Origin: Spirogloea muscicola
Taxonomy: Eukaryota
Direction: 5' to 3'
DNA length: 47,804 nucleotides
NCBI GenBank assembly: GCA_009602725.1
Contig: WELB01000003.1
Location: 1,277,500-1,325,303, forward strand
Shown here one piece after another: positions 3,015-47,611 of the stretch; the first letter of the stretch is position 1; every line of letters starts with the position of its first letter. The notes under the pieces are model-generated. The model worked only from the letters and a program-made list of their open reading frames with translations, had not been told where the DNA came from and did not search any database. The translations under genes and the position numbers were made by a program.

Positions 3015-3150
3015 GCTTCCCTAGTATGTTGTCGTGATTGGTAGAGTAGAGGAGTCCTTCCTCGGCATCTCATTCTTCGGCTTTGGACATTGTCCATTCT
3101 TTTTGGGCTGGCTTTGCCAGCCCCTCTTTCTCTATGGGCGAGCCTTCTTC
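1..3150 (+). mobile_element. Near-intact non-LTR retrotransposon of the RLE (R2-superfamily) type, CRE-clade-like; 5' end lies outside the window
   Basis: RT motifs GVRPIAIGEVLYRL, QFGAG..GGETVVH, VDVRNAFNSVDR, GARQGDPL, YADD and GGLG are followed by a CECG..H..C zinc knuckle, GGERTASHD, RRVDL, ADV, KERKY and LAIDVHGAFG (PD-(D/E)xK restriction-like endonuclease). The 3' UTR carries a hairpin module and a CTTCTTCTT tail at ~3143-3152. Confidence 0.93.
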
Positions 3151-3167
3151 TTAGAGAAAGAGGCGTC

Positions 3168-3316
3168 GGCAAAGCCAGCCCAAAAAGAATGGACAATGTC
3201 CAAAGCCAAAGAAAGAGAAGCCAGAGAAGGACTAGATGCAGAACACAAGACGATGCAGAGGGAAGCTCAGTACCCGCGAGTTAGTCAGAGTAGCTCGCTG
3301 CAGGGAAAGAGGCACT
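3168..3316 (-). mobile_element. Inverted 3'-terminal fragment of the same CRE subfamily, tail-to-tail with the long copy
   Basis: Reverse complement matches 2955-3118: the ORF end (TRGY-stop, gagcttccct) and ggctttggacattgtccattctttttgggctggctttgcc. Confidence 0.85.
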
Positions 3317-3394
3317 GAAAGGTTGTGAAAGGCCAGCCCTTGTCCATTCCTTTTGGGCTGGCTTCTCCCAGCCACCAGTCAATCTGCGCGCTTG

Positions 3395-3582
3395 CTGCTG
3401 TGAAAGGCCAGCCCAAGAAGAGTTGACAAGGTCCAAAGAGCCGAAAGGCGCCTAAACCACACAGCTATGCACGAGACTACCGCGGATGAGAGCTTAAGAA
3501 CCACGAGGTAGCGGCAGCAAGTCGGAGTAACTCGCGGCTGGGAAAGAAGCACCTCGCCGAGACCCAGAAGCAGCAGCACCGG
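3395..3582 (-). mobile_element. Degenerate CRE 3' fragment
   Basis: Minus strand reads GAAASGSRRGASFPAASYSDLLPLPRGS*, then a 3' UTR with a gggctggcctttcacagc module. The UTR resembles 30810-30897. Confidence 0.8.
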
Positions 3583-3844
3583 ACCTTGTCAGCGCTTTTC
3601 GGGCTGGCTTCTCACTCCTGGCTGATGAGTCAGATGACTACCTGGTTCACCATAATAACGAGTTTAACAGCACGACTCCCCAGCCCAAAGTCTTCACCAA
3701 ATATATCTACTGAAAGAAAAGAAGGCGTAGCATTTCGCAAGAATTGGGAGAAGCCAAGCCGAGCCAGTAAGCTGTTTAGGCGGCTTGTTTGCCCAAAGAA
3801 GGGGTGTCCTAGCAAGATGGACTTATTTCATTCTGATGTTATCT

Positions 3845-3970
3845 TAGGTACCTTAGATTAGGTCTCCGTATTATGTAGCATTGTTTAGTCTGCACTCGAC
3901 TCTGCCTGAACAATGTATTGGCTTGAATTGGCCTCCCTTTCAATTCATGCGCCCCGCGCGCCTTCTCTCT
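3845..3970 (+). repeat. Dispersed ~125-bp repeat ('type E' terminus, ends gcgccccgcgcgccttctctc); probable retroelement 3' UTR
   Basis: Near-identical copy at 26298-26421, diverged copy at 11812-11940 and partial inverted copy at 8800-8868. Confidence 0.8.
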
Positions 3971-5002
3971 GAGATGAGACCGCTGTGCTCCTTTGGTGAC
4001 TCTACCTACGATTGCCACCTACCCTGGATGTGGGCGGAGCCTGTGCTAGTCTGATCTGTGTCTGCCATTATGAGCGGATCTGCGTCTGCACCTCCGCTCC
4101 GAGGCGGGTCTAGTGAGTCTGTAAAGATGGGCAAACGCCCCAGCTGAGAATCTTCAGAAGATTGGGAAGAGGAGGCCGTCAACAACCAGTTAACCACCAT
4201 CAAGAGGTGCGACATTAGGAGTCGCCAGATCGCCAGATCTGAATCTCCAACACCTTGAAGGTGCACCATATTTCTCACACAATCACTTCCATTACATCAG
4301 GTGAAGGCCATCATTAATTAGACATGCGGCCCTCCAAGTGTCATGAATCCATAGTCATGGGCAAGGCCCTGCACTGTCTTTGGCAGATCGTCTATGGCAG
4401 CTTGCATACTGCTAATTCTAAGGATATTGTTGGCAGTGAGGCTACACCAGATCGCAGCCTCACTGTATCAGCACGCAAAGTCACTTGATCAGGCCAGATT
4501 GTTTTGCGAGGAGTCTTGCAGTCTTCTTGTGATATTTTGTCAAGACAGCCACCTCGCTGCAATTCACATCTGCAAGACCTACTCTGACATGTTTGTACTG
4601 GTCAGGGGAGCATAGGCGTAGGAACCAGTTTTGTATAAACAAAAGAGGACCAAGTCTAGGTCCAAAGTAAGAGATGGCTTCTGCAGGATGCCAATAAGAC
4701 AAGCCACTCATTTGCTTCTGAATAAGTGAGCTGTGCCTTCGGCCAGCCCAACGAAGTGCTACTTCTAAGGCGACTGCTAACCTTTGCCAAAAACTGTTTG
4801 CTAGAATTTGAGGAGTATATGCCCTGCCAAGAAAGAATGAATTAATGTTGATGCTATGGGGAGTAAGGGTGAAGCCTGAATCCTCTTGAGCACTATCAAA
4901 ATTGACTGATGTCTAGGCGAGCAGGTTGACCAAGAACATTGGGTTCCTGCCGCTCTGGTGTGCCGTGATATCCTGGTGCTGCGGCCAGCCTCCATTCCGT
5001 GG

Positions 5003-8587: not shown

Positions 8588-8795
8588 GAAGAAGAAGTGG
8601 CATTCCCAATGGGGGCAAGGGCTGCGAAAAGCCAGCCCAAAAAGAATTGACAAGGGTTTTGGAGGGGCCTACAAGCGATTAGCAGCTACAAAGGGGCCGG
8701 AAGATGCTATGTCAGAACAGGGGGAAGGATGGTTCACTCAGTAGGTACGAGTGAGTAGCCTCAGATCCGACAGACTAGTTGCCGGGAAACTATCG
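8588..8795 (-). mobile_element. CRE 3' fragment (subfamily ending LLTRTY)
   Basis: Minus strand reads DSFPATSLSDLRLLTRTY*, then a UTR and hairpin module. It parallels 39105-39310. Confidence 0.85.
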
Positions 8796-8991
8796 GGAAG
8801 AAGAGAGAAGGCGCGCGGGGCGCATGAATTGAAAGGGAGGCCAATTCAAGCCAATACATTGTTCAGGGGAAGAAGAGAAGAAGAGAAGGGGCTCGACCAT
8901 TGAGGATAGGGGCTGGACAAGCCAGCCCAAAAAAAATTTAACAAAGAGCCGCGGATCTCGTCCTCGCTGCCGGTCGCCCGACCTCCACGGC

Positions 8992-9605: not shown

Positions 9606-9974
9606 TCCCGCTGTTAGCTAAGCTACCTTAGATATCCACCACCTTCGATATCCAGCCACCTTCGATATATGAAGCCCCAATTTGGCACTAGCTTTTGCTT
9701 AAACATGTATAGGCTTAAGAAGGCCACCCTTTCAATTTATGCGCACTTCGCACCTTCTCTCACAGCCCTCGCCCCGTTGCAAGAGCTGAACTGCATTAAG
9801 AGCCATCGCCCTCCTTGTGGAAGCATTTCCCTCCTTCTTTTCAAACAATTGGCTTAGATGGCCTCCCTTTCGTTTCATGAGCAATGCGCGCCTTCTCTCC
9901 ACCCCTCGGCCACTCTACTTGGCCTTTTACAGCCATCGCCGCCATATGGGAGCACTTTTACCTGAAGGATCTTC

Positions 9975-10200: not shown

Positions 10201-11279
10201 TACAGCCGTTATCCCTATCTGCACTGACCAGAGGTTAGTGAGCGTCCCTTGGCAGAAGACACGGAGAGGGGATCCCGTTCTTCTTACGAACAGTGTACTG
10301 GCTTGCTTTGGCCTCCCTCTTATTCCATCAGCCAACCTTTCTGCTTCACAGCCTTGCCCTCCTTTTATACCGGGCTGAACTTTCACAGCCATCACCCCCA
10401 TTTTTATTCTCCTTCCTCCAGCATCTTGCGCAGCAGGACGATGCCCGCCGCCAATCGGTAGGGTGCTCACTCGTGGCTACGAAGGAAGAAATGGCTCGCC
10501 CATAGGAAAAGAGGGGCTAGCAAAGCCAGCCCAGAAACGAAAGCCTACTTTAGCATTGCCCTGCTTTCTTAGCCCAATCTTAGCACAAGGCTTTTGCTTT
10601 ATGTAGTGTCTTTCTTTCTCTGCACTCCCTTTCCTTTGCCATAAGCAGTGTACTGACTCAGCTGACCTCCTCCGCACTTCAAGCGCACAACACGCCTTCT
10701 GCTTGTGGCGAAATCTCCTCCTTTAAAAGAAGAAGGCGCGCAGTGCGCATGAAATTGAAAGGGAGGCCAATCCGAGCCTTACAAATGTCCTGTTAACTGG
10801 GTAAAAGAGTATCCTCTTCTGCTCTTTCCCCTCGAGAGCATTGTCACTTACAGAAGCTTCGTCTCTTCTGTTGGGCAGGACGGTCTAGCAAAGGGGGGGG
10901 AATCTGGCAAGCGTCGAGGGTCGTGGAGAAGAGTTCTCCCAAAGATCTAGTGGCTGCAAGAACAACAAACAGCTGCAAGAGGTCAGCCCAACAGAGCGAA
11001 CGTGAAAATCTTGCTGCTCAAGTCGTCCAGGAGCTTGATTGCTTGTAGAGTAAGCATTGGTGCATCTGTGAGTACGAAACCTTCGACAGTTGGAATAATT
11101 ACTGGGCTGGCCGCCATGCTTAGCCATCTAAGCAAAGCCGCTACCTGTAGGGAGCTCTCGTTCTCTCCGTATATATGCAAAGAAGTAAGCGGACCACTGC
11201 AAAGTAAGCGAGCTCCAGCAAGACCGCAACGAGTCATGCTTCCGCACATGACTCGTTGCACTAAGAATGTACAAGTGGA

Positions 11280-11377: not shown

Positions 11378-11609
11378 TCCAAAGGCTCGTGGTGGAAAGA
11401 GGGGCCAGCCAGGTCACGAGAGAATTGTCCGGGGGTTGCAATACAGCGTAATGGCGACAGATCAGGAACCACAGTCGTCCAAGGTGTAAAGAGAAAGTGT
11501 CCTCTCCGGACAACAGCCGCACGAGGTGGCCAACACCGATGAATAAATGTGTCATCTATAAAAGGGCGTAGCGCCCGGGCGCTTTCTCGAGCCCCTTCGA
11601 AACTTCGTT

Positions 11610-12165
11610 CACTCTATTTTTGGGCTGGCCACTCACAGCCATCGCCCACAACTGGAAGCGTCTCTCTCTTCAGCGTTTGTTCGGGCTGGCTTATCACAGC
11701 CCTTGCCCCCAATGGGAGAGCCACTTCTATCTCTGGTCTCTTCTTTTCCTGGTCCCTTTGCCAGCCCCTCTTCTCTCTTCTCTATGGGCGAGCCCTTTCT
11801 TTTTGTCACCTTAGGCACCTTAGTTTTGGTCTCCGTATCATGTAGCCTTGTTTAGTTTGCACTCGACTCTGCCTGTACAAAGTATTGGCTTAAATTGGCC
11901 TCCCTTTCATTCCTTGCGCCCCGCGCGCCTTCTCTCTTTTCCTGATCCCTTCGGACTTTGTCAATTCTTCTTGCTGGGCTGGCCACTCACAGCCATCGCC
12001 CACTACTGGAAGCGACTTCTCTTACATCTTTGGCAGAGAGAAGGCGCGCGGTGCGCATGAAATTGAAAGGGAGGCCAATTCTAGCCTTAACAAATGTCCT
12101 GTAAACTGGGTAATGAGCTGGCTAAGGGGGACTAGAGGCAATGACTATGAGAGGCCAGCCCAATG
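11610..12165. repeat. Stack of retroelement 3'-end modules in both orientations
   Basis: GGGCTGGC..CAGCC modules at ~11622, 11683, 11750 and 11976 (+) and ~12150 (-); type E terminus 11812-11940 (+); type F terminus 12036-12135 (-). Confidence 0.8.
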
Positions 12166-12546
12166 GCGCACACCCTGGGAACGCCCAAACTAACCGAGAG
12201 CCGCATTTTGTGATGAGCAAGCAATGCTTGCGGGACGCTAAGGAGAGTTGTGCCTGGGCGAGCCCACACCCACGCCGCTGGAGCCGCTTGGGGGCTCAAT
12301 GGCGTCGATCGACTGGGAATCGTTCCGATTGCCCCCAAGCGCAGTGCCACTGCCGCACAATTGCGCGGCAGTCCAGCCCGCTTCTGCCGTTCGCTCGCGA
12401 CGGTGGGTTCAGTGGGCGGTCGGTGGGCGTTGGAGCGCAGCCCCCCACGGCAGGGCCCCCGAGCCTCGCGCCGTCGACGCCATCGCCACAGCGGCGGCGG
12501 CGGCGGCCGCGGCGGCGGCGCGGCGNCGGCGGCGGCGGCGGCGGCA

Positions 12547-12578
<32 letters not shown>

Positions 12579-21034: not shown

Positions 21035-21068
<34 letters not shown>

Positions 21069-21357
21069 TCTGCGGGGAGGTGCAGCTCGGGCGGCTGCTG
21101 CAGCAAGCTGGGGAGTTGGAAAAGGTCTTGTCCATTCTTCTCAAATTTGTGATTGTTTGGTCTCTACATGTTATGGTTATTCGCGTATTCTAGTGGGGCT
21201 GGCTGTTCACAGCCTCTGCCCGCTTTGGGAGAGCCACTTTCGTGGACGACGCTGGACAAATATGACCGTACAGCAGATTTGTCGGAAAACCACGCTCTGT
21301 GGAAGCCCCCGCCGCGGCACGCGGCGCGGTTGCCGGCGCGCGCGGCGGCGGCGGCGG

Positions 21358-21838: not shown

Positions 21839-22369
21839 CGCGACGCTCGTCGGGCACGCGGTCGCTCTGGCGGCTCGGAGTAAGGAGCGCAAGTACTCTG
21901 ACCACCCTCCAGGCGATGCCTTCGCGGCACTGGCCATTGACGTACACGGGGCATTTGGCAGTGGCTGGTTGAATCTCCTCCAGCGGCTTGCCCGGGAGGC
22001 CATCGAGCGGCGGCAGGGTTCGCCAGGCTTCAATGCTGCCGGCTCCCTCTCGCAGGTCTTTCGGATGTGGCTGGCGGTCTCGCTGCAGCGCTCTTTGGCT
22101 CATGCGGTCCACGCGCGGGCTGGCCGTGCTATGGCTGCTGCTTCCGGGTCTCGGCAAAGTGCCGCTTCTCCTGCTCCGAGTTACTCTGATCTGCTGTTGC
22201 TCACACGTGGATACTGAGCAGCCATCTGCATCTCCCTCTGCACCATCTTGCACTTTGTAGTGTAGTCCTTTTTCAGCACCTCTTTCTTTGGCTTTGAACA
22301 TTGTCCATTCTTTTTGGGTTGGCTTTGCCAGCCCCTCTTCTCAATGGGCGAGCACCTTCTTCTTTCTTC
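21839..22369 (+). mobile_element. CRE 3' portion of the same subfamily as 1-3150; may extend into the gap
   Basis: GHAVALAARSKERKYSDHPPGDAFAALAIDVHGAFGSGW...SYSDLLLLTRGY* (stop at 22217), then UTR, hairpin module and CTTCTTCTTTCTTC tail. Confidence 0.92.
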
Positions 22370-22785
22370 GCCCGTCGCTTCCATGGTGAACCGGTAGACT
22401 TTCCTGCAGCCGGGTCGCTGGCGCAAGTGTATCGCATGCGCTTGGCCGTCTCGCTGCAGAGGTCCATGGCCCGTGCGCTGCACCTTCGTGCTGGACGAGC
22501 CCTTGCTGCTGCCTCTGGCTCTATCCAGGGGACCCACTTCCAGGACCCTAGCCTCTCTGATTTGCGGCTGCTTAGCAGGGGTTACTGAGTGATCTGTAGC
22601 TGCTTTCTTTCTTTGTGTGCTTTGGTTTCTTAGCGCTTCCTCTGGCTTCCTCTGGCCCCCTTCTGGCTGGCTTTGCCAGCCCCTCTTTCTCTATGGGCGA
22701 GCCTTCTATCTTCTCGTTCTTTGTACATTCTTTTTTGGGCTGGCTTGTCCAGCCCCTATCCTCAATGGGCGAGCCCTTTCTTTTC
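22370..22785 (+). mobile_element. 5'-truncated CRE copy (subfamily ending LLSRGY) directly abutting the previous tail
   Basis: ARRFHGEPVDFPAAGSLAQVYRMRLAVSLQRSMARALHLRAGRALAAASG..LSDLRLLSRGY* (stop at 22588); close relative of 26636-27109. Confidence 0.9.
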
Positions 22786-23230
22786 TTAGTGCTTCGCCTT
22801 AGTGCTTCGCCTGGCCCTTCTTCTTGGGCTTCTTGTACTCTGCTCATTCTTTTTTGGGCTGGCTGTTCCAGCCCCTATCCTCAATGGGCGAGCTCTTTCT
22901 TAAAAAGCGCACCCAGTGGCCGCTTGAGTCCCTGTGTGCTTAAGCGCTTTTTCTGGCTCCTTACCTCTGTTGATCACCTGTTTCTGGGCTGGCCAATCAC
23001 AGCCATCGCCCTCTACTGAGGCTTTCAACCGGCCCTTTCAGACCTTGTACAGTCCTTTGGGCTGGCCTTCCACAGCCACTGCCTTATGTTGGAAGAGCTG
23101 TCTCTTTTCCATAGTAAGAAATAGCTCTGTCAAGGTAAGGCAAAGGCTGTGAGAAGATGAAAATGTAAGCTCATTCAAAGGTGGCGAGGGCTGTGAGAGG
23201 CCAGCCCAAAGTACTGAACAAGGCCCAGAA
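22786..23230. repeat. Continuation of the head-to-tail array of 3'-end modules
   Basis: Modules at ~22856, 22986 and 23059 (+) and ~23190 (-), each preceded by a short subfamily-specific UTR piece. Confidence 0.8.
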
Positions 23231-26297: not shown

Positions 26298-26421
26298 GAT
26301 ACCTTAGATTAGGTCTCCGTATTATGTAGCATTGTTTAGTCTGCACTCGACTCTGCCTGAACAATGTATTGGCTTGAATTGGCCTCCCTTTCAATTCATG
26401 CGCCCCGCGCGCCTTCTCTCT
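26298..26421 (+). repeat. Type E 3'-terminal repeat, flanked by CTTCTTCA direct repeats
   Basis: Near-identical to 3845-3970. CTTCTTCA occurs at 26290-26297 and 26420-26427. Confidence 0.8.
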
Positions 26422-26477
26422 TCTTCAATGACTCGCAGATGTGCTTTCCGGCTGAGATGCGCTTGCCAGCTGCACAT

Positions 26478-27370
26478 GAGAGAGAAGGCGCGCGGTGCGC
26501 ATGAAATTGAAAGGGAGGCCAATACTAGCCTTCCAAATGTCCTGTTAACTTGGTAATGAGCTGGCCAGGGGGGACACTAGTATCCCCGGGTGAGCACATG
26601 CATATCTGACAAGCTATACTGAGGAGCCCAAAACCTGCTCGGGCCAAAGAGCTGAAGTACGCGGATCATCCGCGGGAAGACGAGTTCTTCCCGTTGGCCA
26701 TCGACACACATGGGGCGCTGGGAGCTCGGTGGCTCGAGCTGCTCACCCAGCTCGCCCGCCACACCATCGCCCGGCGCTTCCATGGGGAGCCGGTTGACTT
26801 CCCTGCAGCCGGGTCGCTGGCGCAAGTGTATCGAATGCGCCTGGCCGTCTCGCTGCAGAGGTCCATGGCCCGGGCGCTGCACCTTCGTGCCGGCAGAGCC
26901 CTCGCTGCTGCCTCTGGCTCTGGCCAGGGGACCCACTTCCAGGAGCCCAGCATCTCTGATCTGCGGCTGCTTAGCAGGGGTTACTGAGTGTCTCGTAGCA
27001 GCTTTGTTTCTGTTACTTAGCGCTTCCCCTGGCCCCCTTCTCGTACTCTGTTCATTCTTTTTCGGGCTGGTTGTTCCAGCCCCTATTCTCAATGGGCGAG
27101 CACTTTCTTCAAAACCACCACCACGGAAGCCACTAGCCTGGGCTAAAGCACGACCAGCACGCTCGGGAATAGCGAGTGCTTGGGAGCGCTGCAGACTCAA
27201 TGATAGCCGCATTCTATAGCATGCCACGATGGCTTGCGGGACGCTAGAATGGCCTAAGCTACCGGCCCGAGTACGTCGGCGGGCATCAACATGCAGTGCC
27301 AGGCGATGGAGGAGGGAAGACCACTTCGTTCTGTAGCCGCCGTACATGTCCATGGCGCATATCAGTCGTT
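26478..27370 (-). mobile_element. CRE copy (subfamily ending VLTRGY with type F 3' UTR), split by a nested insertion
   Basis: MDMYGGYRTKWSSLLHRLA..YRMRLSLSLQRSQALAIPERAGRALAQASGFRGGG (27370-27117) resumes as ..PQYSLSDMHVLTRGY* plus UTR ending gcgcaccgcgcgccttctctc (26635-26478). An uninterrupted relative lies at 37745-37972. Confidence 0.88.
26636..27109 (+). mobile_element. 5'-truncated CRE copy (LLSRGY subfamily) nested in the opposite-strand copy, with a 6-7 bp TSD
   Basis: KELKYADHPREDEFFPLAIDTHGALGARW...ISDLRLLSRGY* (stop at 26987), then the hairpin module. CAAAACC occurs at 26629-26635 and 27110-27116. Confidence 0.92.
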
Positions 27371-27384
27371 CTAGCGCTGTCGAG

Positions 27385-27625
27385 TGTCGGCCTGTTTGCA
27401 GCGTGCTCAGGCTCATGCCTTGCACCAGAAAGCTGAGCTGGGCGAGCTCTAGTTGGTGGCAGAAGGCCTTGGAATTTGCCATTCGGTATTCAGGCATCCA
27501 TTAGCGACCTTTATGTGTTGACCCGTGGTTACTCAGCGGGTCAAATATGCAGTGCGTAATGTACGTCAATGTACGTCATCAGATGCTTGCCTTTGTACTT
27601 GGCCAATTCTGCCTTCGATTGAACA
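27385..27625 (+). mobile_element. CRE 3' fragment of a further subfamily, related to 31331-31935
   Basis: SACLQRAQAHALHQKA.. and ..ISDLYVLTRGY, then a UTR containing atgcttgcctttgtacttggcc. Confidence 0.8.
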
Positions 27626-28906
27626 CGAAAATATTCCTACTTCAAGTTCGTGCTATTGAAGTAAAACGAATCTTAGGCTTGGTTGTGGGAGAGCAACAAG
27701 CTCCAAGGGGCTCCTAGACAAAGCGGCTCTTTGGAGCCCTTATCATACATCTCTGGCTGCATGGGTCCTCGTTTAGATACCCTACTTGAGACATCGCAAG
27801 TCTAGGATATGCACGACGTAAGGATGCGCATCAGCCGAGATGGGCATGCCGGCAGAGTATCTTCTCCTTGCATTTACAGTGTACTTGCTCAGCTTGGCCT
27901 CCCTTCTATCATGCGCACGCGTGCCTATTCATCAGAGAAGCAGCTCCCAAAAGGGGTGCAAGTGCTGTGATAGACTGAGTAGCTCCAAAGTGCTGTGAAA
28001 GGCCAGCCCAAAAAGAATGGACATGGTCCGAAGTGGGCTGGAAAGCGCAGCCACTTGGCAAAGTAAGTGGCCACTACAAATGGCTGTTCGATATTCCCGA
28101 GTCAGCAGCCTTCATTCGCCTGCTATCCAGGTGCAAGTTGCACTGAAGGTGGTTACGAAGAAGCTGCATCAAGTGTCTGCTAGACGCACAGATAGAGCAA
28201 TTGTCAGCTTACCAGCAGATACACAGAGTATTCTGAGGTGCTGTCCAGCTGCTTCTTATGCTTCCTCCTAAGCAGGTGACAGACAGAGAGGGCCAAAGTA
28301 TGACGACGCATGTGAAGCTTCATGGATCTCAGAGATGCTCAAGTACCTGTGCTTCTGCAACAATGATGTCCACAATCTGTGAACAAGTCGAGCCCCACAC
28401 AAGGCAACATCCGCATCCTAAAGTTGCTGAGCTTGCAGGCTGTCTGGTGGGTCCTCAAGGAATGCGAAAAGTGGAGGGCATGGTGGCGGATTCTTTCTTT
28501 AGGCCGTCAAGAAATGTCCGAAATGTATCCTCGTGGACAGCAGGCAGGCAATACTGGGTCGATCTCGATGATAGAGGACAGAGTAAAGATGCTAGATGTG
28601 AAATCAAAGATTGACCGTCATTGGAAAACACCCTACTGAGGTAAGCTTGCAGCTTGCAGGTACTGCACGGGTCTTTTGTCGTTTTGGTGTGCTCATGCTA
28701 GATCAATATCCGAAGCTGCTAAACTGATACGCAGCCATTAAAGCGTTTGCAGTACTAGGTGAGAGGTGCAGCATAGATACCTGCAGCTTTCCTTTACTTA
28801 CTAAGCACAACTAGCAAACCCGAATGCGATGCACAACTAATGCATCCAGCAGGGTGGCAGCCCAGTGCAGGTGGCTCGTAGTGAAGAGACAATGGTTGTG
28901 ACCACT

Positions 28907-29852: not shown

Positions 29853-30347
29853 GTTAGCTACTGGTATGCAGCGCCAGTGGCGGCAGGAGTGGCGGTAGCG
29901 GCAGTCGACTTGCAGCTCAGCCGAAGCTCTGTCACGGGAACCTCGCTGAACTGTCGACCAGAGAGCTCAGGACCGCACCACAGCAGCGTCACGAGCGCAG
30001 CCTTGCAGGGCTCGGCGGACCATTGCGGCGTGGCGCGCGACGAGGGATGGCGGCTGAGAGCCGCTCAAGCTGTCGCCGGCAGCTGAGGTGCCATGACCAG
30101 GCCGCCCCAGCCAACGCGCCGGTAGCCGTCGTGCAGAGGGATGACACTGCGGCCCCAATTCCAGGGGCCGCTTTCCGCCAGGCCCGCCTTGGCGTTCCCC
30201 GCTGGCCTTTCCGCCCTCCCGCCTGGCGCCGCGACGGCGGCGGCGGCGGCGAAGGCGGCGGCGGCAGCGGCGGCGGCGGCGTCGGGCCTCCTTGCCACGC
30301 GGCGGAGTGCAGAATTGGGCTAACCTACGCAGCCCCTGTTGCGTAGG

Positions 30348-30394
30348 CTAAACCCTAAACCCTAAACTCCTAAACTCAAAACCCGAAACCCTAA
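30348..30394. repeat. Degenerate interstitial telomere-like repeat (CCCTAAA)n
   Basis: taaaccctaaaccctaaactcctaaactcaaaacccgaaaccctaa. Confidence 0.8.
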
Positions 30395-30424: not shown

Positions 30425-31330
30425 CTGCGCCTGGGAGCGCTATAGACTCAATGATAGCCGCATTCTGTAGCAGGCAACGATGGCTTGCGGGACGCTAGAA
30501 TGGCCTAAGCTACCATATAAAAACTGTTAGGTATAGAAATGGGCGTTCTGTTCAGGTCGGCCATCGGGCTTGGCCGTTCTCGCTTTATGGAGAGCTCACT
30601 GCCATCGAAGCCATCGCCCCTTTACGGGAAGGGTCATTCTCTCCCACATTCACTGCACTAGCTTTTGGCCTGGCCTATATTGGCTGGCTTTTGCCCTCCC
30701 TTTCAGTCAGGAAGGAAACAAGAAGAAACGGCTCTTCCAAAATTGACAGCAAGGAAACAGCTCTTCCAATGCAACTGCTGCTCAGGGACACTAAGCTCCC
30801 CTTTGCAGTAGTCTCTTGCATAGCTGTCTGGTTATGGGGCCTTTCGGCCCTTTGGACCTTGTCCATTCTTCTGGGCTGGCCAATCACAGCCCCCCCCAGA
30901 GGTCAGCCCAAACAGCTCTTCCAATGAAGGCAATGGCTGTGAGAGGCCAGCCCAAAGCAATGTACAAGGCCTGAAAGGGCCGGACGGCGCAATACAACAC
31001 GATAAGCCATGCGCGCCCCGCACATTATCCCATATTTGAGCTTGGGCTTCCCCATAGCCGTCCAGTCTTCTGGGTTAGGCCTGGCCACCGGCCACCTGTT
31101 GGAAGTGCATGGCCCCTTCAGGCCACTGGCTTCCGTGGCAGCGCTCCGGCTCCTCAAATCAGCCAGTCGGATTTGTATATGCTCACCCGTGGGTACCAAC
31201 GTCAACTTTCCTTCAGCCACCTGAGCATAGGGCTTCGTTTTGTGTTGCCCCACTCTTTTGCACTAGCTTTTGCCTGAACAATGTAATGGCTTGAATTTGC
31301 CACTTTCATATATGAGCACCGCGCGCCTTC
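30425..31330. mobile_element. Nest of short CRE 3' relics and modules
   Basis: 30430-30514 matches 27180-27263 (minus). Modules lie at ~30873 (+) and ~30915-30955 (-). 31030-31200 reads ..SDLYMLTRGY and is followed by a terminus ending gcaccgcgcgccttc at ~31330. Confidence 0.75.
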
Positions 31331-31935
31331 TTGTTAGCATCCATTGGTCCAGCATCGACGCACATCGCTGGCCACGCAGTGGGCAGTGCAGAACAAAGAA
31401 AGCTGCAGCACTATTCCGATTACCCCCAATGCGATCAGCCAGCGGCAGTCGACATCTTTGGCTGTTTAGGTCATCGTCTCCACCCTCTCCTTCAGAATAT
31501 TGCATATCTAGGCTACACACGACATGCAGATGTGTTCCCGGCTGAGATGGGCTTGCCAGCTGCATATCTGTCGTTCTTGCGACGGCGAATTTCGGCCTGT
31601 TTGCAGCGTGCTCAGGCTAATGCTTTGCACAAGAAAGCTGGGCAAGCTCTAGTTGGTGGCAGAAGGGCCTCATATCTGCCATCTAGTATTCAGGCATCAA
31701 TTAGCAACCTTTATGTTTTTGACCCGTGGTTTCTGAGCTGGTCAATCTGCTGTAATTTATGTAGGTCTTCAGATGTGCTTGCCTTTTGGCCTTGTGGTAC
31801 TTGGCCATTTGGCCTTCGTTTGTTTCAAATACACGAAACATTTTCATTGGCCACTTGAGTCGCTGTGTGCTTGGGCGCGTTTTCTGGCCCCTTCCAACTA
31901 TATTCATTCTTTTTCCAGGGCGGCCAATCACAGCT
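31331..31935 (+). mobile_element. 5'-truncated CRE copy of a divergent subfamily (RLE C-terminus plus UTR)
   Basis: IAGHAVGSAEQRKLQHYSDYP..PAAVDIFGCLG..FLRRRISACLQRAQANALHKKAGQAL is homologous to FAGHAVGLAARAKERKYADHP..ALAIDVHGAFG..FRMRLAVSFQRSLAHAVHTRAGRAL. Confidence 0.85.
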
Positions 31936-32256
31936 ATCAGGTAATAGAGTTTGAACTAAGTGATAGAGGGCCTGAGTGGCCAAGTACGAAGGCAAGCACA
32001 TTAACAGATGTACATCACCTGCTGCTAAGCTGACCTCTTCTGAGGTAAATGGCAATATTTCTTCTCTTCACAAGTACATTTTCTCCAAACCCGAGCCATC
32101 AGGTAACAGAGTTTCTACTAAGTGATGGAGGGCCTGAGTGGCCAAGTACGAAGGTAAGCACATTGACAGATGTACATCACCTGCTGCTAAGCTGACCTCT
32201 ACTGAGCTAAATGGCAAGATTTCTCCTCTTTTCGAAGTGCATTTTCTCGAAACCCC
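31936..32256. repeat. Tandem duplication, 2 x ~162 bp, immediately upstream of the quinone oxidoreductase
   Basis: atcaggtaa..agggcctgagtggccaagtacgaagg(c/t)aagcacatt..gtacatcacctgctgctaagctgacctct..aaaccc starts at 31936 and again at 32098. Confidence 0.93.
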
Positions 32257-32384
32257 ACAGACTCCTCCCTGGCCGCACTCAACCGNCGCCGCCGCCGCCG
32301 CCGCCGCTGCTGCCGCTGCCGCCGACCCTTCGCGTCGCAGGCTCGCCGTTGGAAGGCTCCATAGCCCGTGCAGCTCCGCCTTCG

Positions 32385-35397: not shown

Positions 35398-35785
35398 GCT
35401 TATTTCCTTCATTGGGAGAGACACTTCTGTTGTCGCTTTTTTGGTTGCCTAGGCTGGGCAAGGGCCAAGCAGCTGGGCGCCACTTGTGACGGCTCCACCC
35501 GACGTGTGGGCCCCGCCTTCCGGCGCCCCCGGGAACCCCGTCGGCGCGTCACGCCCAGAGACGAGCTGCAGCCCCCGCCTTCCGCGCTCCCGCCGCCGCC
35601 GCCGCCACCGCCGCCGCGCCTCCCGCCGCGTGCCGCTGCGGATCACGCGCCTTGGGGCTCGCGCGACGGCGCCTCTACTTTAGCGAGAGCGGCAGCGCAA
35701 CCCCTCGCCCGTCGCCCAGCACCATCTCCGTGCAGCCGTTGGCGCCTCCTACGGCAGCAGCGCAGGAGCTCCCGGCGCGGCCGCC

Positions 35786-37744: not shown

Positions 37745-37972
37745 TCTATGCTCCCAGGCGCTCGCGATACCAGCGTGCTGGGTGTGCATTAGGCCAGGCT
37801 AATGGCTTCCGTGGTGGTGGTCTGGCTCCTCAGCTTAGCTTGTCAGATATATATGTGCTCACTCGAGGAATTTAGTGCCCCCCTTAGCCAACTCATTTCC
37901 CCGTTACCAGGACATGTGCAAGGCAAGAATCGGCCTCTCTCTCAATTTCATGCGCACCGCACGCCTTCTCTC
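37745..37972 (+). mobile_element. CRE 3' fragment with type F terminus
   Basis: ..GFRGGG..LSDIYVLTRGI* then a UTR ending catgcgcaccgcacgccttctctc. Confidence 0.82.
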
Positions 37973-38829
37973 TAAGAAAAAATATTTCTCACCAGTGATT
38001 TATGCAATTTATTCAGCAGGGGAAGTGGCATCGAAAAGTGCCAGTGGGCCAATAGCCCCTTTGATCTCTGTACTACCAGACTGCTTAGTACTGCTGGTTC
38101 CATTAGTTGGCCATATCAAGAAAGGGCTGGAACCAAAGAGACGGATATCTGGCAAGAAAGGACCAGAGAGATTGCAACTGATAGAGTGTTAGAGGCAAGC
38201 AAGCAAGTGAGAAGAACAAACCAGGAAAACGCTAGACAGGTTCATAGAGCAAGCAGCACGTGAGAAATTAGTTGGGAATCTCACACAGTATGACTTTGTC
38301 ACCCTATATGTCCAGTTTGGAGCACAAGTCGGTATTGGAGAAAAGCAGCACAGCGACATCGCGTCTAGTGGAATAAAGCAGACTGTTACCGGACCTGCCC
38401 CCTCAGCTACCTCTGCCATCTCCTCCGACCTTGCAGAGCACTAAATATGACATTATTCAGGTTTTCCAAGCCTGAGTTGGTGGGTCTCCTTCATGTCCTC
38501 ACCAAAGGCCGGTGCCTGGCTAGCGATCCAACTCCCACAATATCAATAAGGACGTGGTAACAACTGCCACTATCAACCCAACCAACCTAAGTACGTTGGC
38601 AGGGTACGCAGTGCACGCGGTCAACAAGCGGCCCGCGTCAACGAACAGAAATTGCTTACCACACCGCCAAAGATGGGTTTGTTGCGCTGGCCATTGACGT
38701 ACACGGGCCGTCTGAGACATGATCAGACATTCTACAAGGGCTTGCCTTGCATGCGATCACCCGATGCCAAGGAGTGAAGCTTCTTCAACCGAAGGAAGTG
38801 AGCTCGTCCAGAAAGAAAGAAAGGACGCT

Positions 38830-39720
38830 AAGAAAAGACTTTCGTGTATTTGAAACAAACGAAGCCAAGTGGCCAAGTACAAAGGCAAGCACATCTAGAG
38901 ACGCACATCACCTACAGCAGATTGACCCGCTCAGTAACCACGCGTCAAACCATAAAGGTCGCTAATCGATGCCTGAACACTAGATGGCAGATACGAAGCC
39001 CTTCTACCATCAACCATTCTTTTTGGGCTGGCTTTTCGCAGCCCTTGCCCCCATTGGGAGTGCCCCTTCTTCTCTTAACTAGAGCTTGCCCAGCTTTCTG
39101 GTGCAAAGAAGAAGTGGCACTCCCAATGGGGGCAAGGGCTGCGAAAAGCCAGGCCAAAAAGACTTCACAAAGGTTCAAAGGGGCCTAAGAGCGGTGAGCA
39201 GCTACAAAGGGGCCTGAGGATGCAATGGTAAAACAGGGGGAGGATGGATCACTCAATAAGTACGAGTGAGGAGCCTCAGATCCGACAGACTAGCTGCCGG
39301 GAAGCTATCACCCTGACGAAAGCCAGAGCCCGCAGCGAGAGCACGGCCAGCTCGCAGATGCAGAGCGTGGGCCATGGACCGCTGCAGGGATACAGAGAGG
39401 CGCATCCGATATACCTGAGCCCACGAGCCCGCGGCGTTGAAGTCGGCTGGCTCGCCGCGTCTGCGGGACACAGCCCGCCGCGCAAGCCTAGCCNCTGCTA
39501 AGCAGCCGCATAAGCTGTGTGGTTCGGGCCCTTCACTCTTCCAATGTAAGAAAGAAAGAGAAGTGGCTCTTCCCTCTCTGGCCGCGCTTCTCTTCACTAT
39601 GGGCGAGCACTTGCTCTCTGCCAAGAAGAAGGGCTCGCCCATTGAGAATATGGGCTGGAACAGCCAGCCCAAAAAAGAATGAACACAGTACAAGAAGAGG
39701 GGGGGGGAAGGGCTGCCTCT
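38830..39720 (-). mobile_element. Nest of CRE 3' fragments from several subfamilies, containing a 62-bp plus-strand module insertion
   Basis: 38840-39105 is the inverse of the 31625-31840 type. 39105-39492 reads ARRAVSRRRGEPADFNAAGSWAQVYRMRL..LSDLRLLTRTY* plus UTR. A further minus-strand module lies at ~39620-39680. Confidence 0.85.
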
Positions 39721-40180
39721 GCCAAGGGCTGTGAAAAGAAGAAAGTGCTCGTGTGTGAAAACTGTGAAAAGCCAGACCTAAGAACATGAACAAGGTCATT
39801 GTGCGGAAGAGGGGGCTGTGAAAATGAAAGAGATACGCCGAACAAGAAGGGCAGGCGATTGCAGTGCAACTAGTATCTTGCTTTTTGCGCCATCGGGCCC
39901 CTTCAGACCTTGTGAGCCCTCTCACAGCCACCAGTAAAATGTTGGAAGCGGCTGTTTCTAGTGCAAGCGGGAAGCGAATTTGTGAGACCTTCGGGTCCCC
40001 CATCCGCCCGCCCCGGCCTGATCCGCAATTCTGCCCGCCAATCGCGTGCCGCCAGGTGCAGCCTGGGGCCCCCTTCTGTGCTGCCAAGTGTAGCCGCCCG
40101 GACGCCCACTTATCCCGACACCCCCCGGACTGCCAAAAACCTTCCACCTCTCCTCCTGCCGCCGCCGCCGACGCCCCGCC

Positions 40181-41826
40181 ATGGCCGCCGCCACCGCCGC
40201 CGCCGCCGTGGTCGCCCCCGCCGCCGCGCCCGCCGCCTCCTTCGACGGCCTCCGCCGCAGCAGGTCGTCAATCTCTTTCGCGTTTTTCAACGAGCCTGTC
40301 GGTGCCCGGTTTCGCTCACCGCAGCGCAAGCATTAGCCAGCGTGGAGCGCCGTGGAGGACTCGTCAGGGGCCTAGACTTGCCGACCGGACCACTGCTAGA
40401 GTCCACCTCCGCTACGAATAGCCCTGGAAGCCGGTCCTAAGTACCATAAGTCATTTAGCTGAAGCACACACATAAGCCAAGTAGCCATCTGCACCTTGTG
40501 ACATTGTAATGTCAGAGACACGAAGGTGATCAGCGACATCTATCTTGTGTCGAGGAAGTGGAAATTCCACGCCAAGTCAGCTGTAGCTCACAGAAGCCCT
40601 CACATTACTGGCTGTGCAGCGCTGTGGCGGCCCCGCGCCTGGCTGCCAAGACTACTCGCTTCAGCACCTTGAAGGTGATAATAGCTCACTACTGACGTTA
40701 TGCGTGATGTTGCGATAGTAGAAATCTTCTATTAGCACTTGCTTGAGGTAGCACACGAATCAGAAGCTCCTGGATGAGGCCATCCAGCACGGTCTCTCAA
40801 TCAAGCAATGCTGTTGTGCAGGTCTCCTGCAGCGCTCAGGAGGAGCCAGCTTCCAGCAGGCGGGCCGTCCTCCTGACAGCGCTGGCCACCAGCGCCCTGC
40901 TTACCCGGGGCTCGCAGGCCAACGCGGCCTCTGGCCCGGGCACGCCTGGTGCCAAGCGCACTGCTGAGAAGGCCGATGATCTCAACAAGGCCGCCGATGA
41001 GCTCATCAACCAGGATTCTCCTCCCCGTTTCGGTGGGGCCAGGGAGAATGCCCCTGATGAGTCCTTCGGTTCTCTCACACAGAAGTAAGTGCTCTGTCTG
41101 GTTGGTGGCAAGTTGGCACCCCTTGAGCACTCTTCTTTCTTCCAACATCATGCATGGCTTGATCGCATTGATTGGCAATGTTGTTTTATGAGTTCCAATG
41201 CCAGCAGGACGGCGTTGGTAATGTGGCTACTTTGCAGCTTCCAATATGAGCTTTTTGAGGGCTGCAGCATTTTAGTTTATCACAAAGGTTTTCCAAGTAT
41301 GATATCCCTAGCTCAAGGCAATTGTTTGTGCTTGTTTATGTTGATCAGGGCTGGAAGCGGCCCAAAGGACGTCCAGAAGAAGATCGAGGGCTCCGGCTCT
41401 CTCTCAACTGCAGTAAGTTGGCAGATTGGTAGACCACGTGGGTTTGCTTGTCTTACATGGTCACCATCATGGAGTAGTGATCCTTGCGCCATGAAGACTG
41501 AGGTCCAGGCTTTCTGTAAGAATGGGATACTAAAGTGTACTTCATTGCTCAACCTTTTGAGCAGGGTGATATTGGCGGCGCCGCGAACATCACTGACATT
41601 GGCGAGAAGGCCCGGCAATTGTATGCCAATGCATCTGCAACCATGAAGGTAAGAAGTCTTCGCCAGGCACTCTCAAGATACCTAGATATATCTAGGTGAG
41701 TATGCATGGACAATGTGGACATGGACGTGTCAGCCAAAGCGTCTTCATCTCTTATGTCATGATTCTAAGCGTGTGTTACTTCCATGTTGTTTGCAGAGTG
41801 TGAAGGCCACCGTGAATGGCAAGTAA
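40181..41826 (+). CDS. Unrecognised 192-aa nuclear-encoded chloroplast protein with a bipartite, Tat-type lumen-targeting presequence; six exons
   Basis: Exons 40181-40263, 40620-40674, 40822-41084, 41349-41412, 41565-41648 and 41797-41826 join in phase (579 nt) with GT-AG junctions. Ala-rich transit peptide, then SSRRAVLLTALATSALL..QANA (twin Arg, hydrophobic core, AxA). Confidence 0.78.
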
Positions 41827-43127: not shown

Positions 43128-44328
43128 ATGGCGGCGGCGGCGCCGGCGGCGGCGGCGGCGTGGACGGCGGGCGGCGGCGAGAGGAGTGTAGTCTCAAGGG
43201 TGGCTCCGAGGGTTTCATGGACCTCCTCGGAACATCCTCTCTCCCCAAAACACACATCAATGAGTTACCAGACCCCTTCCTTATTACGACAAGGGTCGTC
43301 CGAGAAACCTCCCTCCCCGCTTTTAGATCTATAACCTTACCAGCCCCTTCCCTCGGGCACCGAGGCCCCTCTGGANGCCGCCGCCGCCGCCGCCGCCGCC
43401 GCCGGGACGCCGCGAGCGAGCTTCTCAGACGAAGGCCCACAAGGGTCCGCCATTGAGCTCGAGCGCAGGCTCTCGTTAGCTAATCCTGACGTCGCCGCCG
43501 TCTCCGACGTCGTTTGCTGGTGTGGCCGCAGTCGTGGGCATCGTGAAGCTGGCGCTGGAGGCCGGCAAGGCGACGCCGGCGCCGCCAGTGGGGCCGGCGC
43601 TGGGCGCCAAGGGCGTCAACATCATGGGCTTCTGCAAGGAGTACAACGCCAAGACCGCCGACAAGGCCGGCTACGTCATCCCCGTCGAGATTACCGTCTT
43701 CGACGTGAGAGAGGCCGCCATGGCCGCCGCCCCTGCAGCTGCTGCTGCCTCTTGCGCTCTATGGCTGCGCTCACCCACTTGCTGTTAGCCCAAAAGCAAG
43801 AAAAGAGGACTGGCAGCTCTGGACTCGAGGAGGCCCGAATTGCATCTACAGTGCCACAAGTAATGCACACAACTTGGCGAGCCTCGTGCTCTGCAAGCGC
43901 ACACTGACATGGACTGCCGAGTCGCCTGCGGTGGGTGGGCGGCGCCCCTCCTCACCTGCCAGGACAAGAGCTTCACTTTCATCCTGAAAACCCCGCCGGC
44001 GTCCGTCCTCCTCAAGAAGGCTGCAGGTGCGATGCCGGTTACGCTACAGTGGCCTTGGCGTCAGCTTGGATGCCGTCGTTGCGCCCCGCCTGATGGCTGC
44101 GTGCACATGCTGCATGCAGGCATCGAGCGAGGGTCGACAAACCCGCAGACGGAGAAGGTGGGCAAGGTGACGGTGGACCAAGTACGCGCGATCGCGACCG
44201 AGAAGTTGCCCGACCTCAACTGCACGAGCATTGAGAGCGCGATGCGCATCGTCGCGGGCACCGCCGCCAACATGGGCATTGATGTCGACCCGCCGATTCT
44301 CGAGAAGAAGGCCAAGGTCGTGTACTGA
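43128..44328 (+). CDS. RPL11: Plastid 50S ribosomal protein L11; 5' transit-peptide exon uncertain because of the single-N gap at 43377
   Basis: [118 protein letters not shown]. Confidence 0.96.
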
Positions 44329-45021
44329 CCACCGCTGCCTCCACCGCTGCCGCCGCCACGAGGACCGGCGAGAGGCTGCGCCGCCAAGCCCCATCTTCCA
44401 TGTCTGCACTTTACCCATTATTTGTGGTAGCTTGTAGAGTTTGTCACTTAACCTATTGATGTGCTCTGGCAACTAGCAAGTCCAGGAATGTCATGGGGTT
44501 TGCCGCAAGCGCGCTGCGCTGAGCAACCCCCTGCATGGCACTCCGGTACGGTTGCCACTATCCAGGGGGATTCCTAGTGCACGGCACTCCTGGCCATGCA
44601 GAAGTTGCTGGCACGGGGTTTTCCAAGGAGAAGCATGATAGATTGAAGCATGCAGAAGCATTGAAGGCCTCCTTACAGAACTCCACAGATGAGCATTCAA
44701 GAAGCACGAGACCTAGGCTTTGGATTCTGGCAAGGCGTATATCGACAGTTGGGGTTCAGCAATCACCAGATTGAGGAGTTGTGCTCGAACAAGGTGTCAA
44801 GTCATCAAACAAGTCATGCTGATGCGTTGATGTTCTGTAGAGCTCACTTGGTGGAGTGAAGTGCTTGTCAGTGATTGACAGGCTTGAGACTTGCTTAGTA
44901 AGTGGCAGTTGAGCCTAGGGTCTGTGGTTCAGGGGCTAAGGCTCAGGGCTGGTGCCCCAACTTGGACTGGTGCTCGTACACACGAGCGTCCGCCTGGTGC
45001 GCAGCCGCCGAGCCGCAGGCG

Positions 45022-47611
45022 TCATGGCGTGGGGTTGGGGAAGCGAGCATGCACAGCATCAATCTCAGCGAGCGCGGCGGTTGGCACCGCAGTGCTGGCT
45101 GCTGATAGGGCCTCGGCGAGCTGCGTGGAGTTGGAGGCTCCAACGATGGCGCTGCCGACCAGCGGGTTTGCCAGCACGAAAGCGAGCGCCAGCTGCGCGG
45201 GCGTCAGGCCGTGGCGCTCCGCAATGCTGGCATAAGCCTGCACCATCAGCCGCCACACTTTCGGCAATGTCACATCTCGCCATGGCGGTTTAGGACTTGG
45301 GTTTAAGGTCTGGGATCAAGGGCCCAAGCAGGCCAAGCGGACGAGGCAGCCCTGAGGGCAGCCATGAGGGCGGCCCCGCATGCGGCTCACCAGCACAGCC
45401 TCGCGGACGTTGGGCTTGGCGAGGCCGTAGCGGCACTCCGCCTCGGCATACCGCCCGCGGTACTTGATCAGACGCGCCTCTGGCGGCGCAGCACCGCCAC
45501 GGAAGTACTTGCCGGTCAGCAGGCCCATTGCTAGCGGGCTGCACCAAGGGTCAGGAAGGAGGTGAGGAGAGGAGTGAGGAGGGCAGTACGAGCAGGGCAA
45601 TATGGGAGGGTCCAAATAAGGAGGGAGGGTGGGAGGGAGGGACGCCGCCGAGGGAGAGAGGGGGAGTTGGGAGGAGGGGGGTGAGAGGCCAGATTATGAG
45701 CAGCTAAGCTTTCAAGGTCTGGTGGTCTAGGATAATAATTTGTTCCTTTGTTGTTAAATGTCAAGCATCAGAGCAGTGCCCATGCGAAGTGCACCTGTAG
45801 GCGAGGAGGGAGACGCATTCGAGGTGGCAGACCTCCGCGAGGCCAGCGTCGAACGTGCGGCAGAGAAGGCTGTAGGCGTTCTGCACGGTCACGACGCGCG
45901 GGAAGCTGTGCGGTTGCGCCTGCGCGAGGTGCAGGCAGCTGAGCAGCCCGTATGGGGTCTCATTGCTGACGCCCACGTGCCGCACCTGCAGAGGAGGCCC
46001 GCCCGCACTAATCAGCCGGTATTGGAAGCAAATCAATATCTTTCTGTGAAAATCAACCAATAACTTGTCTTGAAGAATAAGCAAAGCCTGAAGCTTTTGT
46101 TCTACTTGTTGAGAGGGGCAGGGTCGGCGGTGCCGACTCTGGCAGCAGCCGCTCAACCAAGGGCGTGTAGCAGAGAGAAGGAGGATTCAAGACTCAGCAT
46201 CATTAGCTTCAGAAGTAACTTGATGTGGGTTGTGAGCTGATTGATATTTCATATGTCAGATTAAGTTGACTCCATGTCCTGCTTCGATCCAGGGCAAGAA
46301 GAGGGAGGGGGGGACCTTGCCTGCGGCAACGGCCTCCCCGAGCGCGCCGAGCTGCTCCTCAAGGCCAGCGGCCGCGGCGTAGCTCTGCTCTGGCCGGTAG
46401 TCGACCTCCCCAAACATGGGCACGTACCTGCAGCCCCACCTCGGCAGCTCTTGAGCCGCAGCAAGACAGTGCAGCGGCGGAAGCTACTGCAGCTTGCGAG
46501 ATGGCGAGCTTATGCTGCTGTGGCTTGCGCTAAGATTAGGCTGCGGCTGAGGCGGCGATTCAGAAGGGGCCGGAGAAAGGTGGGAGGGAGGTTGAGTTGG
46601 TTGATAAAGGATGGAGAAGCTGGAGGGAGGTAGAAGGCAGGACGAGGAGGTGGATGCGGAGGTAATGGGGATCTGAGGAGGGAGGTTGGGGTGAGACAGT
46701 GGGTTTAGCGTCACCTGTCAGGCCAATGCGTCTGATAGAGGTCGACGTAGTCGGTGCGCAGGCGCGCGAGGCTGCCGTCGAGCGCCGCCCGGATGCCGGC
46801 GCCGCTCAGCGCCGGCGGCCCGCCGCGGATCCAAGGCATCTGGCCCGATGGGCCCGTCACCTGGGCACAGCGCCAGTCCGCAAGCTTGAGATCAGAGCCA
46901 CTGCACTCATAAGAGAAAGACTTAATTAGTGGATCTTTCTTCATCTATACTAAATCCTTAAAAGTGTTCCAGTAGGCAAAGCTGACCCTCTTCCATTAGA
47001 GGGCGATGGCTGTGATTGGCCAGCCATAAAGCACCAATTGTAATGGGAGCTGCAGTTGTGGTCGCCCCAACGGCCATTTTACTGTAGAATGTGAGTAGCT
47101 CCCTCAGATTTCGAACCAGGTGTGCATTTCTCGTATCATTTTATTCATGTACCTGTGGCTCAGATGAGCTTACTCATTTCAATAATTTCTATAATAAGCA
47201 AGTGCTCCACTATCTTGCTAATTGAACACCCTAAATTCTTCTGGCGGCACCTTGGTAGCAATTATGATGCGGTCACGGCTGACACCGGCGGCGCGCATCC
47301 AGCGGCCGACGTACTCCTCGGAGCGGCCCTGCCAATGGCGCTCACACTCTCTGTCAGCAAATCCGGCAGAAAACACATTCAGGGCTTAGGGGTATGGTTT
47401 CAGGGTTTAGGGTTTCGGGTATAGGGTTGCAGAAAATTGTGAGATGCGTGGAAAGAAGACAGGTGCCTTCATGGGCGCACCTGAGTGCTGGCCCGCTGCG
47501 GCACGGGGTACATCTCGGCGGTGTCCACGAAGTTGACGCCGGCGTCGTGCGCGAGCGAGAGCTGCGCGGCTGCATCGGCGTAGCTGATGCCCTCCCCGAA
47601 CAGCATGGTGC
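45022..47611 (-). CDS. Aldo/keto reductase, Tas-like; 5' exon(s) lie beyond the visible part or window edge
   Basis: GTMLFGE..GVNFVDTAEMYPVP|GRSEEYVGRW..IIIATK|VTGPSGQMPWIRGG..DGSLARLRTDYVDLYQTHWPDR|..VRHVGVSNETPYG..VQNAYSLLCR..|SPLAMGLLTGKY..|AQLALAFV..SAIVGAS..FPNPTP*. Confidence 0.95.
47385..47428. repeat. Degenerate telomere-like (TTTAGGG)n tract in an AKR intron
   Basis: cttaggggtatggtttcagggtttagggtttcgggtatagggtt. Confidence 0.65.

Follow-up and report, generated by a model that had tools for sequence, protein, structure and literature searches.

The window analysed here comprises 47,804 nucleotides (nt) of the Spirogloea muscicola contig WELB01000003.1 (assembly GCA_009602725.1, positions 1,277,500 to 1,325,303). 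It holds intron-containing host genes (Ndr, a GH47 mannosidase, PEMT, a zinc dehydrogenase, ribosomal L11 and an aldo-keto reductase) and numerous copies of a retrotransposon, with element-like DNA accounting for 23% of the window, or 18% without the one long copy. Many of these copies carry a short recurring motif, referred to below as the module, which is centred on a GGCTG/CAGCC hairpin and followed by a TTC tail. The motif is the 3' end of a high-copy R2/CRE-type retrotransposon lacking long terminal repeats (non-LTR). The hairpin likely serves as the recognition signal through which the element protein binds its own RNA to start target-primed reverse transcription.

On both strands of the window, GGGCTG-N5-10-CAGCC was matched 33 times against 0.91 expected, with self-complementary copies counted twice, and none of 100 shuffles reached this number. 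A profile search returned 57 matches at E<=5, consisting of 21 near-complete copies (E<=1e-7), 16 fragments (E<=0.05) and 20 weaker matches, and the same profile had no match in the reversed window, which served as a control. As the profile was built from 20 copies, 20 of the 21 near-complete matches were recovered by construction. These results bear out an earlier sequence-only reading of this DNA, which had described about 30 copies of the motif on both strands and a nearly invariant GGGCTG/CAGCC stem, in which 95% of the cells are paired. The 5' arm of the hairpin was found at all 25 positions listed in that reading, but a complete module at only 20 of them: the copies at 30873, 3405 and 27995 end after the hairpin, the copy at 3170 is broken in the 3' arm, and the copy at 22986 is cut in the 3' segment. 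The conserved region also reaches about 20 nt farther upstream than had been seen, including the motif YYTGTYCATT. An Rfam comparison, suggested at that time, gave no family at gathering score in the window. Since only weak sub-threshold matches were obtained, a known ribozyme or riboswitch was rejected, and a fold like that of hepatitis delta virus was discarded on visual inspection, given the distance of just 7-8 nt between the arms of the hairpin.

The identity of the element was examined using its protein. The open reading frame (ORF) at 1-3014 contains the reverse transcriptase (RT) motifs GDPL at 1218 and YADD at 1311, followed downstream by a CCHC finger (2319) and by RVDL, DVVT and KERKY (2526, 2577 and 2667), which resemble a restriction-like endonuclease (RLE). 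A structure model of the second frame (predicted local distance difference test score 92.6) gave seven Foldseek matches at E<=0.001, all of them to R2 proteins and over the whole model, and a profile comparison ranked R2 best, then L1. The Pfam family RVT_1 was weak on both frames of the ORF but above the cut-off on the intact relatives P0005 and P0006; a Pfam scan of these two proteins showed no other family, and no apurinic/apyrimidinic endonuclease (APE) domain was seen. Compared with solved structures by sequence alone, P0006 had no match. Seven residues of the finger and the endonuclease (C417, C419, H432, C436, D488, D503 and K533) are near-invariant in 55 homologs. The closest named homologs are EukProt gene models, one of which is 98% identical over 26% of the query, more distant relatives occur in Klebsormidium nitens and Closterium, and the intact relatives P0006 and P0170-P0172 are 1015-1068 amino acids long. 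A non-LTR RT is present, with a CCHC finger and a PD-(D/E)xK-type endonuclease behind it and no APE domain, and the copies are 5'-truncated, with a 3' tail and without LTRs. By this test, the element is an RLE-type non-LTR retrotransposon of the R2 group in the wide sense. Insertion into ribosomal RNA (rRNA) genes, which defines the R2 clade proper, was not observed, as no rRNA family was found in the window and the copies lie between host genes. The CRE clade is a candidate affiliation, based on RT and C-terminal motifs that we take to resemble those of Cre elements and on target-site duplications of variable size, read by eye. Site-specific insertion, typical of CRE elements but not required, was not seen in the flanks described below, and no named CRE member was among the homologs looked up (30 clusters). 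A literature search found no description of this element family or its tail, which Repbase, Dfam or the supplements of genome papers may already hold.

The module lies at the 3' end of the element, as the sequence-only reading had assumed. When the window was searched with the C-terminus, numerous ORF ends fitting L-[TS]-R-[GT]-Y-stop were found. Eight of them lead to the module (type M) at 75-105 nt behind the stop codon, with two of the eight modules broken, and the remaining ones lead to ends of type G or H, except for one that is cut before any end. When 4372 contigs of run X6 were aligned to one copy, the summed depth, which is not a copy number, collapsed over the 10 nt that follow the TTC tail, from 1.18 million to 831. 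The flanks behind the tail have no consensus (agreement of 0.37-0.43 in 127, 64 and 38 contigs). Therefore, the element has no fixed target site. Bins holding element ends have summed depths of up to 1.1 million in X6, compared to about 100-460 in unique bins, which shows a very abundant repeat.

Eight pairs drawn from five ORF-linked copies of subfamilies A, B and D were compared to assess sequence constraint. The modules are 0.70-0.88 identical and the 20 nt before them 0.65-0.80, while the upstream untranslated region (UTR) is at shuffle level (0.42-0.61; shuffles 0.44-0.53) and third codon positions are 0.38-0.44 identical. Since the module is kept between subfamilies and the upstream UTR and third codon positions are not, it is under constraint. 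A different reason for this conservation could be RNA 3'-end formation or protection, or the spread of one 3' end across subfamilies by template switching or conversion. This would agree with the many joints between subfamily ends in other genomic copies, with the three tail types behind one ORF family, which suggest swappable 3' ends, and with a stem without compensatory change. However, the stem is constant across subfamilies that differ in loop and linker, a pattern suggestive of selection and not of recent copying, a matching hairpin is kept in distant relatives, and an invariant stem with a variable loop matches the tails of zebrafish L2 elements (PMC4176376). Such another reason is thus considered improbable.

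Two further tail types occur behind the same ORF end, type G with about 12 aligned copies and type H with five, the latter behind a more divergent form of the ORF end. The G-type end consists of GGC...GCC with a loop that could base-pair with CAATT farther downstream, followed by a hairpin of GCGC and finally the tail CTTCTCT. The module therefore marks some subfamilies and not the whole family. The earlier proposal of a 3' module common to divergent subfamilies of an RLE-type element is correct to this extent, but it does not extend family-wide.

In the consensus fold, the GGCTG/CAGCC hairpin is the sole consensus helix, and with 40 nt of upstream context its probability exceeds 0.5 in 14 of the 21 copies. 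In subfamily A, the GC of the loop pairs inside the hairpin, leaving a loop of 3 nt. Relatives outside the window were searched in metagenomes, where four of 55 candidates gave a related locus, and in viral contigs (35 candidates) and prokaryote genomes (18 candidates), where none was found. One of the four loci, L004, was discarded as it does not reach the stop codon. The C-terminus of P0006, which clusters with a K. nitens protein, is encoded by L003, L001 is a close relative of L003, and L002 matches P0005. All three loci that reach the stop codon have, 35-42 nt behind it in a short UTR, a GGC-N3-GCC hairpin with three outer pairs (six pairs), which occurred by chance in 3, 0 and 3 of 5000 shuffles. 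Compared with subfamily A, 13, 11 and 13 of 15 bases are identical (0, 17 and 1 of 3000 shuffles), and one pair of the hairpin occurs as C-G, U-G and U-A across species. A conserved terminal stem-loop stands before a short-repeat tail, as in the stringent-type tails of long interspersed nuclear elements (LINEs). The module profile from the window, run on L001-L003, did not find their hairpins. The Klebsormidium-like ends L001:1882-1970 and L003:1885-1985 terminate in TTG/TTA repeats and not in TTC, and both loci have a second small hairpin directly behind the stop codon.

Several observations weigh against the interpretation of the hairpin as a conserved recognition signal. In the longer context, it is outcompeted by other folds in seven of the 21 copies. 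No compensatory change was found in its five core stem pairs within the window, and invariant pairs say nothing for structure. The hairpin motif of L001-L003 was picked by eye after the loci had been seen and was then tested, and the cross-species alignment of seven rows from about three lineages fails to beat its shuffle control (104-353 of 500). Furthermore, G- and H-type subfamilies have spread without this module.

Beyond the hairpin, the sequence-only reading had proposed that the module folds as an H-type pseudoknot, with the loop pairing with the GGGCGAGC segment, and had seen what looked like a compensatory change between the copies at 22737 and 23059. The pairings in these two copies can be drawn with 7-8 pairs, but at -12.2 and -11.0 kcal/mol they are the two strongest of 20 copies and not typical, as the median lies close to -5. 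In 18-20 of 20 copies, the stem retains its outer pairs, G-C and C-G on one side and C-G on the opposite side, and avian and turtle R2 3' UTRs offer a precedent for a pseudoknot (bioRxiv 10.1101/2024.11.11.623112). A pseudoknot with a 3' stem is likewise possible on paper for the sister G-type end (75% of the cells of the second helix paired), which resembles the avian R2 layout, but its covariation is no better than that of shuffles, of which 218-312 of 500 reached it. For the module, the middle pairs of the pseudoknot stem are broken in 6-13 of 20 copies, and the loop pairs with its own 3' segment at -5.4 kcal/mol and with those of other subfamilies at -5.9 kcal/mol (own-partner test, p=0.85 for nine subfamilies; p=0.57 when repeated over six). 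Its covariation was matched by 201-309 and 322-357 of 500 shuffles, with 357 of 500 on the alignment of 13 rows. The G at 22747, which makes the eight-pair example, is a T in 2.85 of 3.68 million of the summed depth of X6 (78%) and also in most of the depth of X2, X5 and X8. The GC of the subfamily A loop is already paired inside the hairpin, and the 3-nt loops of L001-L003 have no partner segment. Neither the pseudoknot nor the compensatory change was thus confirmed by the own-partner or covariation tests, and the pyrimidine-rich loop and purine-rich 3' segment pair by composition. The pseudoknot is unlikely, and a loop contact with the 3' segment that is stabilised by protein might still occur, given the well-kept end pairs. 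Pairing of the C-rich linker with the 3' segment into an additional hairpin was rejected by the own-partner test (p=0.81). Both alignments, A4 and A9, exclude copy 22986, because its 3' segment is cut, and A9 comprises the 13 of 21 copies with intact upstream sequence. The two E1 rows, and additionally 47026 in A4, are out of register at the 3' end, which slightly lowers the pair counts for every structure.

The upstream motif YYTGTYCATT is complementary to ATGGGCGA, and the resulting outer stem encloses the hairpin. An outer stem of upstream UUGUYCAU with AUGGGCGA around the hairpin is a tentative proposal that may well not hold. It appears in the lowest-energy fold of seven of 14 copies, as judged by eye, and of L003; these folds comprise A, most B and one F copy, and the stem is weak in D, E and F. 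Its pairs are seen as U-G, U-A and C-G without a break, and 13 of 500 shuffles attained its covariation score on the 13-row alignment, compared to the 357 for the pseudoknot. On the other hand, this value is within reach of relatedness alone, the outer stem is absent from the consensus fold, and it fails the own-partner test (p=0.16). Its energy is better than that of the pseudoknot stem in only six of the 14 copies used for the own-partner and energy test. The module most likely folds into the hairpin, either by itself or enclosed by the outer stem, and not into the pseudoknot.

The copy density in the window is due to 5'-truncated copies nesting in each other's tails (Table 1). Related element DNA lies directly behind 15 of the 21 modules, compared to a coverage of 18-23% of the window, but the modules counted form about 11 clusters and are thus not independent, and the places in which an insertion can survive are restricted by genes. 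At 8590-8947, first a G-type and next a D copy went into the tail of the preceding one, each with TCTTCTTCC duplicated on its flanks. A 50-nt A-type insertion at 22664-22712 (duplication CTTCT) splits the UTR of a subfamily B copy, and the G-type element at 26479-27386 (-) is split by a subfamily B copy at 26629-27110 (+; module 27044-27111; duplication CAAAACC). Uninterrupted forms at 26628-27112 and 22659-22710 are present in four of four runs and are probably other genomic copies. In total, target-site duplications of 5-10 bp were found at six insertions, with weaker candidates at three more and one imperfect duplication of about 17; a caveat is that they were read by eye. Most begin with tail-like CTT or TCT, which fits priming through pairing of the UUC tail, but two, CAAAACC and AAC, are A-rich, have at most one base in common with the tail and do not fit. 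Template jumping as the origin of head-to-tail arrays is disfavoured at 8590-8867, where duplications ending at the same flank base favour serial insertion; it may account for junctions without duplication.

With many copies only 50-80 nt long and several cut right after the hairpin or in the loop, the short copies could also be a separate short interspersed nuclear element that borrows the LINE tail, or the hairpin could be the DNA target of the endonuclease. Both are highly improbable: the ragged 5' ends run on into UTR and ORF sequence belonging to the same subfamily, the hairpin is not where most duplications are located, which is in tails and UTRs, the flanks lack a consensus, and the Rfam scan of the window gave nothing at gathering score. 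Closely spaced inverted copies, several of them cut right after the hairpin or in the loop, were observed at 3151-3431, 23042-23219 and 30858-30970 and could be 5' inversions or fold-back deletions. One of them scored weakly as a microRNA-like hairpin.

Table 1. Copies, ends and nests of the element in the window (positions as in the window; strand of the element).
Feature	Position	Strand	Details
Long retrotransposon ORF copy, subfamily A	1-3014	+	open at the 5' edge of the window; one frameshift near 1071-1095
3' UTR of the long copy	3015-3150	+	module (hairpin 3105-3123) and TTC tail
Nest of broken copies	3151-3604	-	ORF ends at ~3284 and ~3500; modules cut in or after the hairpin; one + fragment 3339-3376
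Three head-to-tail insertions	8590-8947	-	module copy 8881-8945; G-type end 8797-8867; subfamily D ORF end and module 8590-8794
Solitary 5'-truncated module, A type	10484-10551	-	
Nest	11575-12166	+	modules 11614-11671, 11676-11730, 11960-12023; fragment 11757; G-type ends 11804-11937 (+), 12035-12130 (-)
Solitary 5'-truncated module	21182-21242	+	
Largest nest	21840-23225	+	ORF end A (to 22217) and module 22297-22363; ORF end B (to 22588) and own module 22721-22784; further modules 22836-22901, 22968-23020, 23042-23109 (+) and 23160-23219 (-)
Nest	26292-27621	both	G-type copy 26292-26421 (+), duplication CTTCTTCA; H-type element 27333-27621 (+)
Two module fragments	27935-28025	-	
Tail-to-tail pair	30792-30994	both	+ copy cut after the hairpin 30858-30894; complete - copy 30907-30970
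Mixed cluster	31119-32255	both	G-type end 31119-31331; H-type element 31355-31845; module fragment 31909-31934; two H-like fragments (-)
Cluster	38840-39795	both	H-type element (-) carrying a + module 39005-39073; subfamily D ORF end and module 39107-39492 (-)
Module among fragments, in the preceding cluster	39625-39690	-	duplication CTTGGCAGAG
Solitary module	46988-47037	-	
G-type 3' ends	3837-3974, 8797-8867, 9660-9761, 10731-10810, 11804-11937, 12035-12130, 26292-26421, 26479-26628, 31211-31331, 37830-37973		
H-type ends	27333-27621, 31355-31845, 38840-39121, 31932-32255		behind the more divergent ORF end; 31932-32255 holds two 162-nt tandem H-like fragments

Further observations concern predicted gene models and the simple repeats of the window. 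The models P0001, P0004, P0008, P0009 and P0011 include strings of C-terminal fragments of the element, some fused to host domains, and P0011 consists of nine tandem repeats of an 83-residue piece. Short degenerate TTTAGGG-type repeats at 30348-30394 and 47385-47432 adjoin likely 5' ends of host genes. Runs of GCC/GGC triplets lie near gene starts (12491-12578, 21035-21068, 30231-30285, 32283-32324, 35590-35629, 40158-40237, 43130-43179 and 43377-43404), with single N bases in or beside three of them. An unbroken stretch of 90 A (47707-47796) may be an assembly artefact within an intron.

That the module serves in template recognition is suggested by the analogous R2 elements and L2 elements of fish. 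Structured RNA of the 3' UTR is selected by R2 proteins (PMC11194090; bioRxiv 10.1101/2024.11.11.623112), and in zebrafish L2 a conserved stem together with a specific loop is what the proteins recognise (PMC4176376). By this analogy, the element protein would bind the last 60-70 nt of its own RNA through the invariant stem and the subfamily-specific loop. The endonuclease would nick a chromosomal site without a fixed sequence, where the UUC tail may often pair with the nicked strand at CTT-rich sites, and copying would usually stop after 50-500 nt, leaving little beyond the module. Because older tails and UTRs are CTT-rich, new copies would land there and build nests.

A more far-reaching and rather doubtful possibility is an R2-like lineage of streptophyte algae that has dropped site specificity and uses a tail of less than 70 nt, in which the underlying GGC-N3-GCC hairpin has been conserved between Klebsormidium and the sister group of land plants. 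The subfamilies of this lineage would rewire the same 3' purine segment between outer stem and pseudoknot and home into each other's UUC tails. If true, few template signals of R2-type enzymes would be as small, and no earlier one would have been defined for a CRE-like element. In a literature search, 3' RNA recognition was found to be dissected for R2 and L2, and no such work was found for CRE-like elements or these algae. The short candidate signal, several natural loop variants and the intact relatives make template recognition easy to test. The presence of a very high-copy RLE family without site specificity in an alga closely related to land plants is also relevant to genome annotation, because fragments of the element are spliced into predicted host genes (P0001, P0004, P0008 and P0009).

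As LINEs with structured 3' tails are familiar, there is nothing unusual in the finding as such. In stringent-type LINE tails, a stem-loop is followed by a short-repeat tail. The algal module shares with the tails of eel UnaL2 and zebrafish ZfL2-1 and ZfL2-2 a short terminal stem-loop with a conserved stem and a lineage-specific loop (PMC4176376). These are APE-type L2 elements of fish with tested binding, in contrast to an algal RLE element known from its sequence. Compared to R2 (Bombyx mori, Taeniopygia guttata and Platysternon; PDB 8GH6, 9DOU, 9NL2 and 9NL3), the element has the same overall fold with a single ORF, an RT, a CCHC finger and a C-terminal RLE, and it has a short structured 3' RNA, whose role as a template signal in R2 would apply here by analogy. 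It differs from R2 in its identity of 14-16%, its location outside ribosomal DNA, the lack of a fixed target and of a supported pseudoknot, its TTC tail and its target-site duplications. With the CRE clade (CRE1/2, SLACS and CZAR, with MoTeR related), it has in common an RT and an RLE in one ORF and target-site duplications of variable size (PMC12278014, PMC3636483). However, the trypanosomatid members target spliced-leader genes and end in poly(A), whereas the algal family is dispersed, reaches a very high copy number and ends in TTC. In being an RLE element without a fixed target, it resembles HERO, EhRLE3 and YURECi (PMC4640811, PMC3636483).

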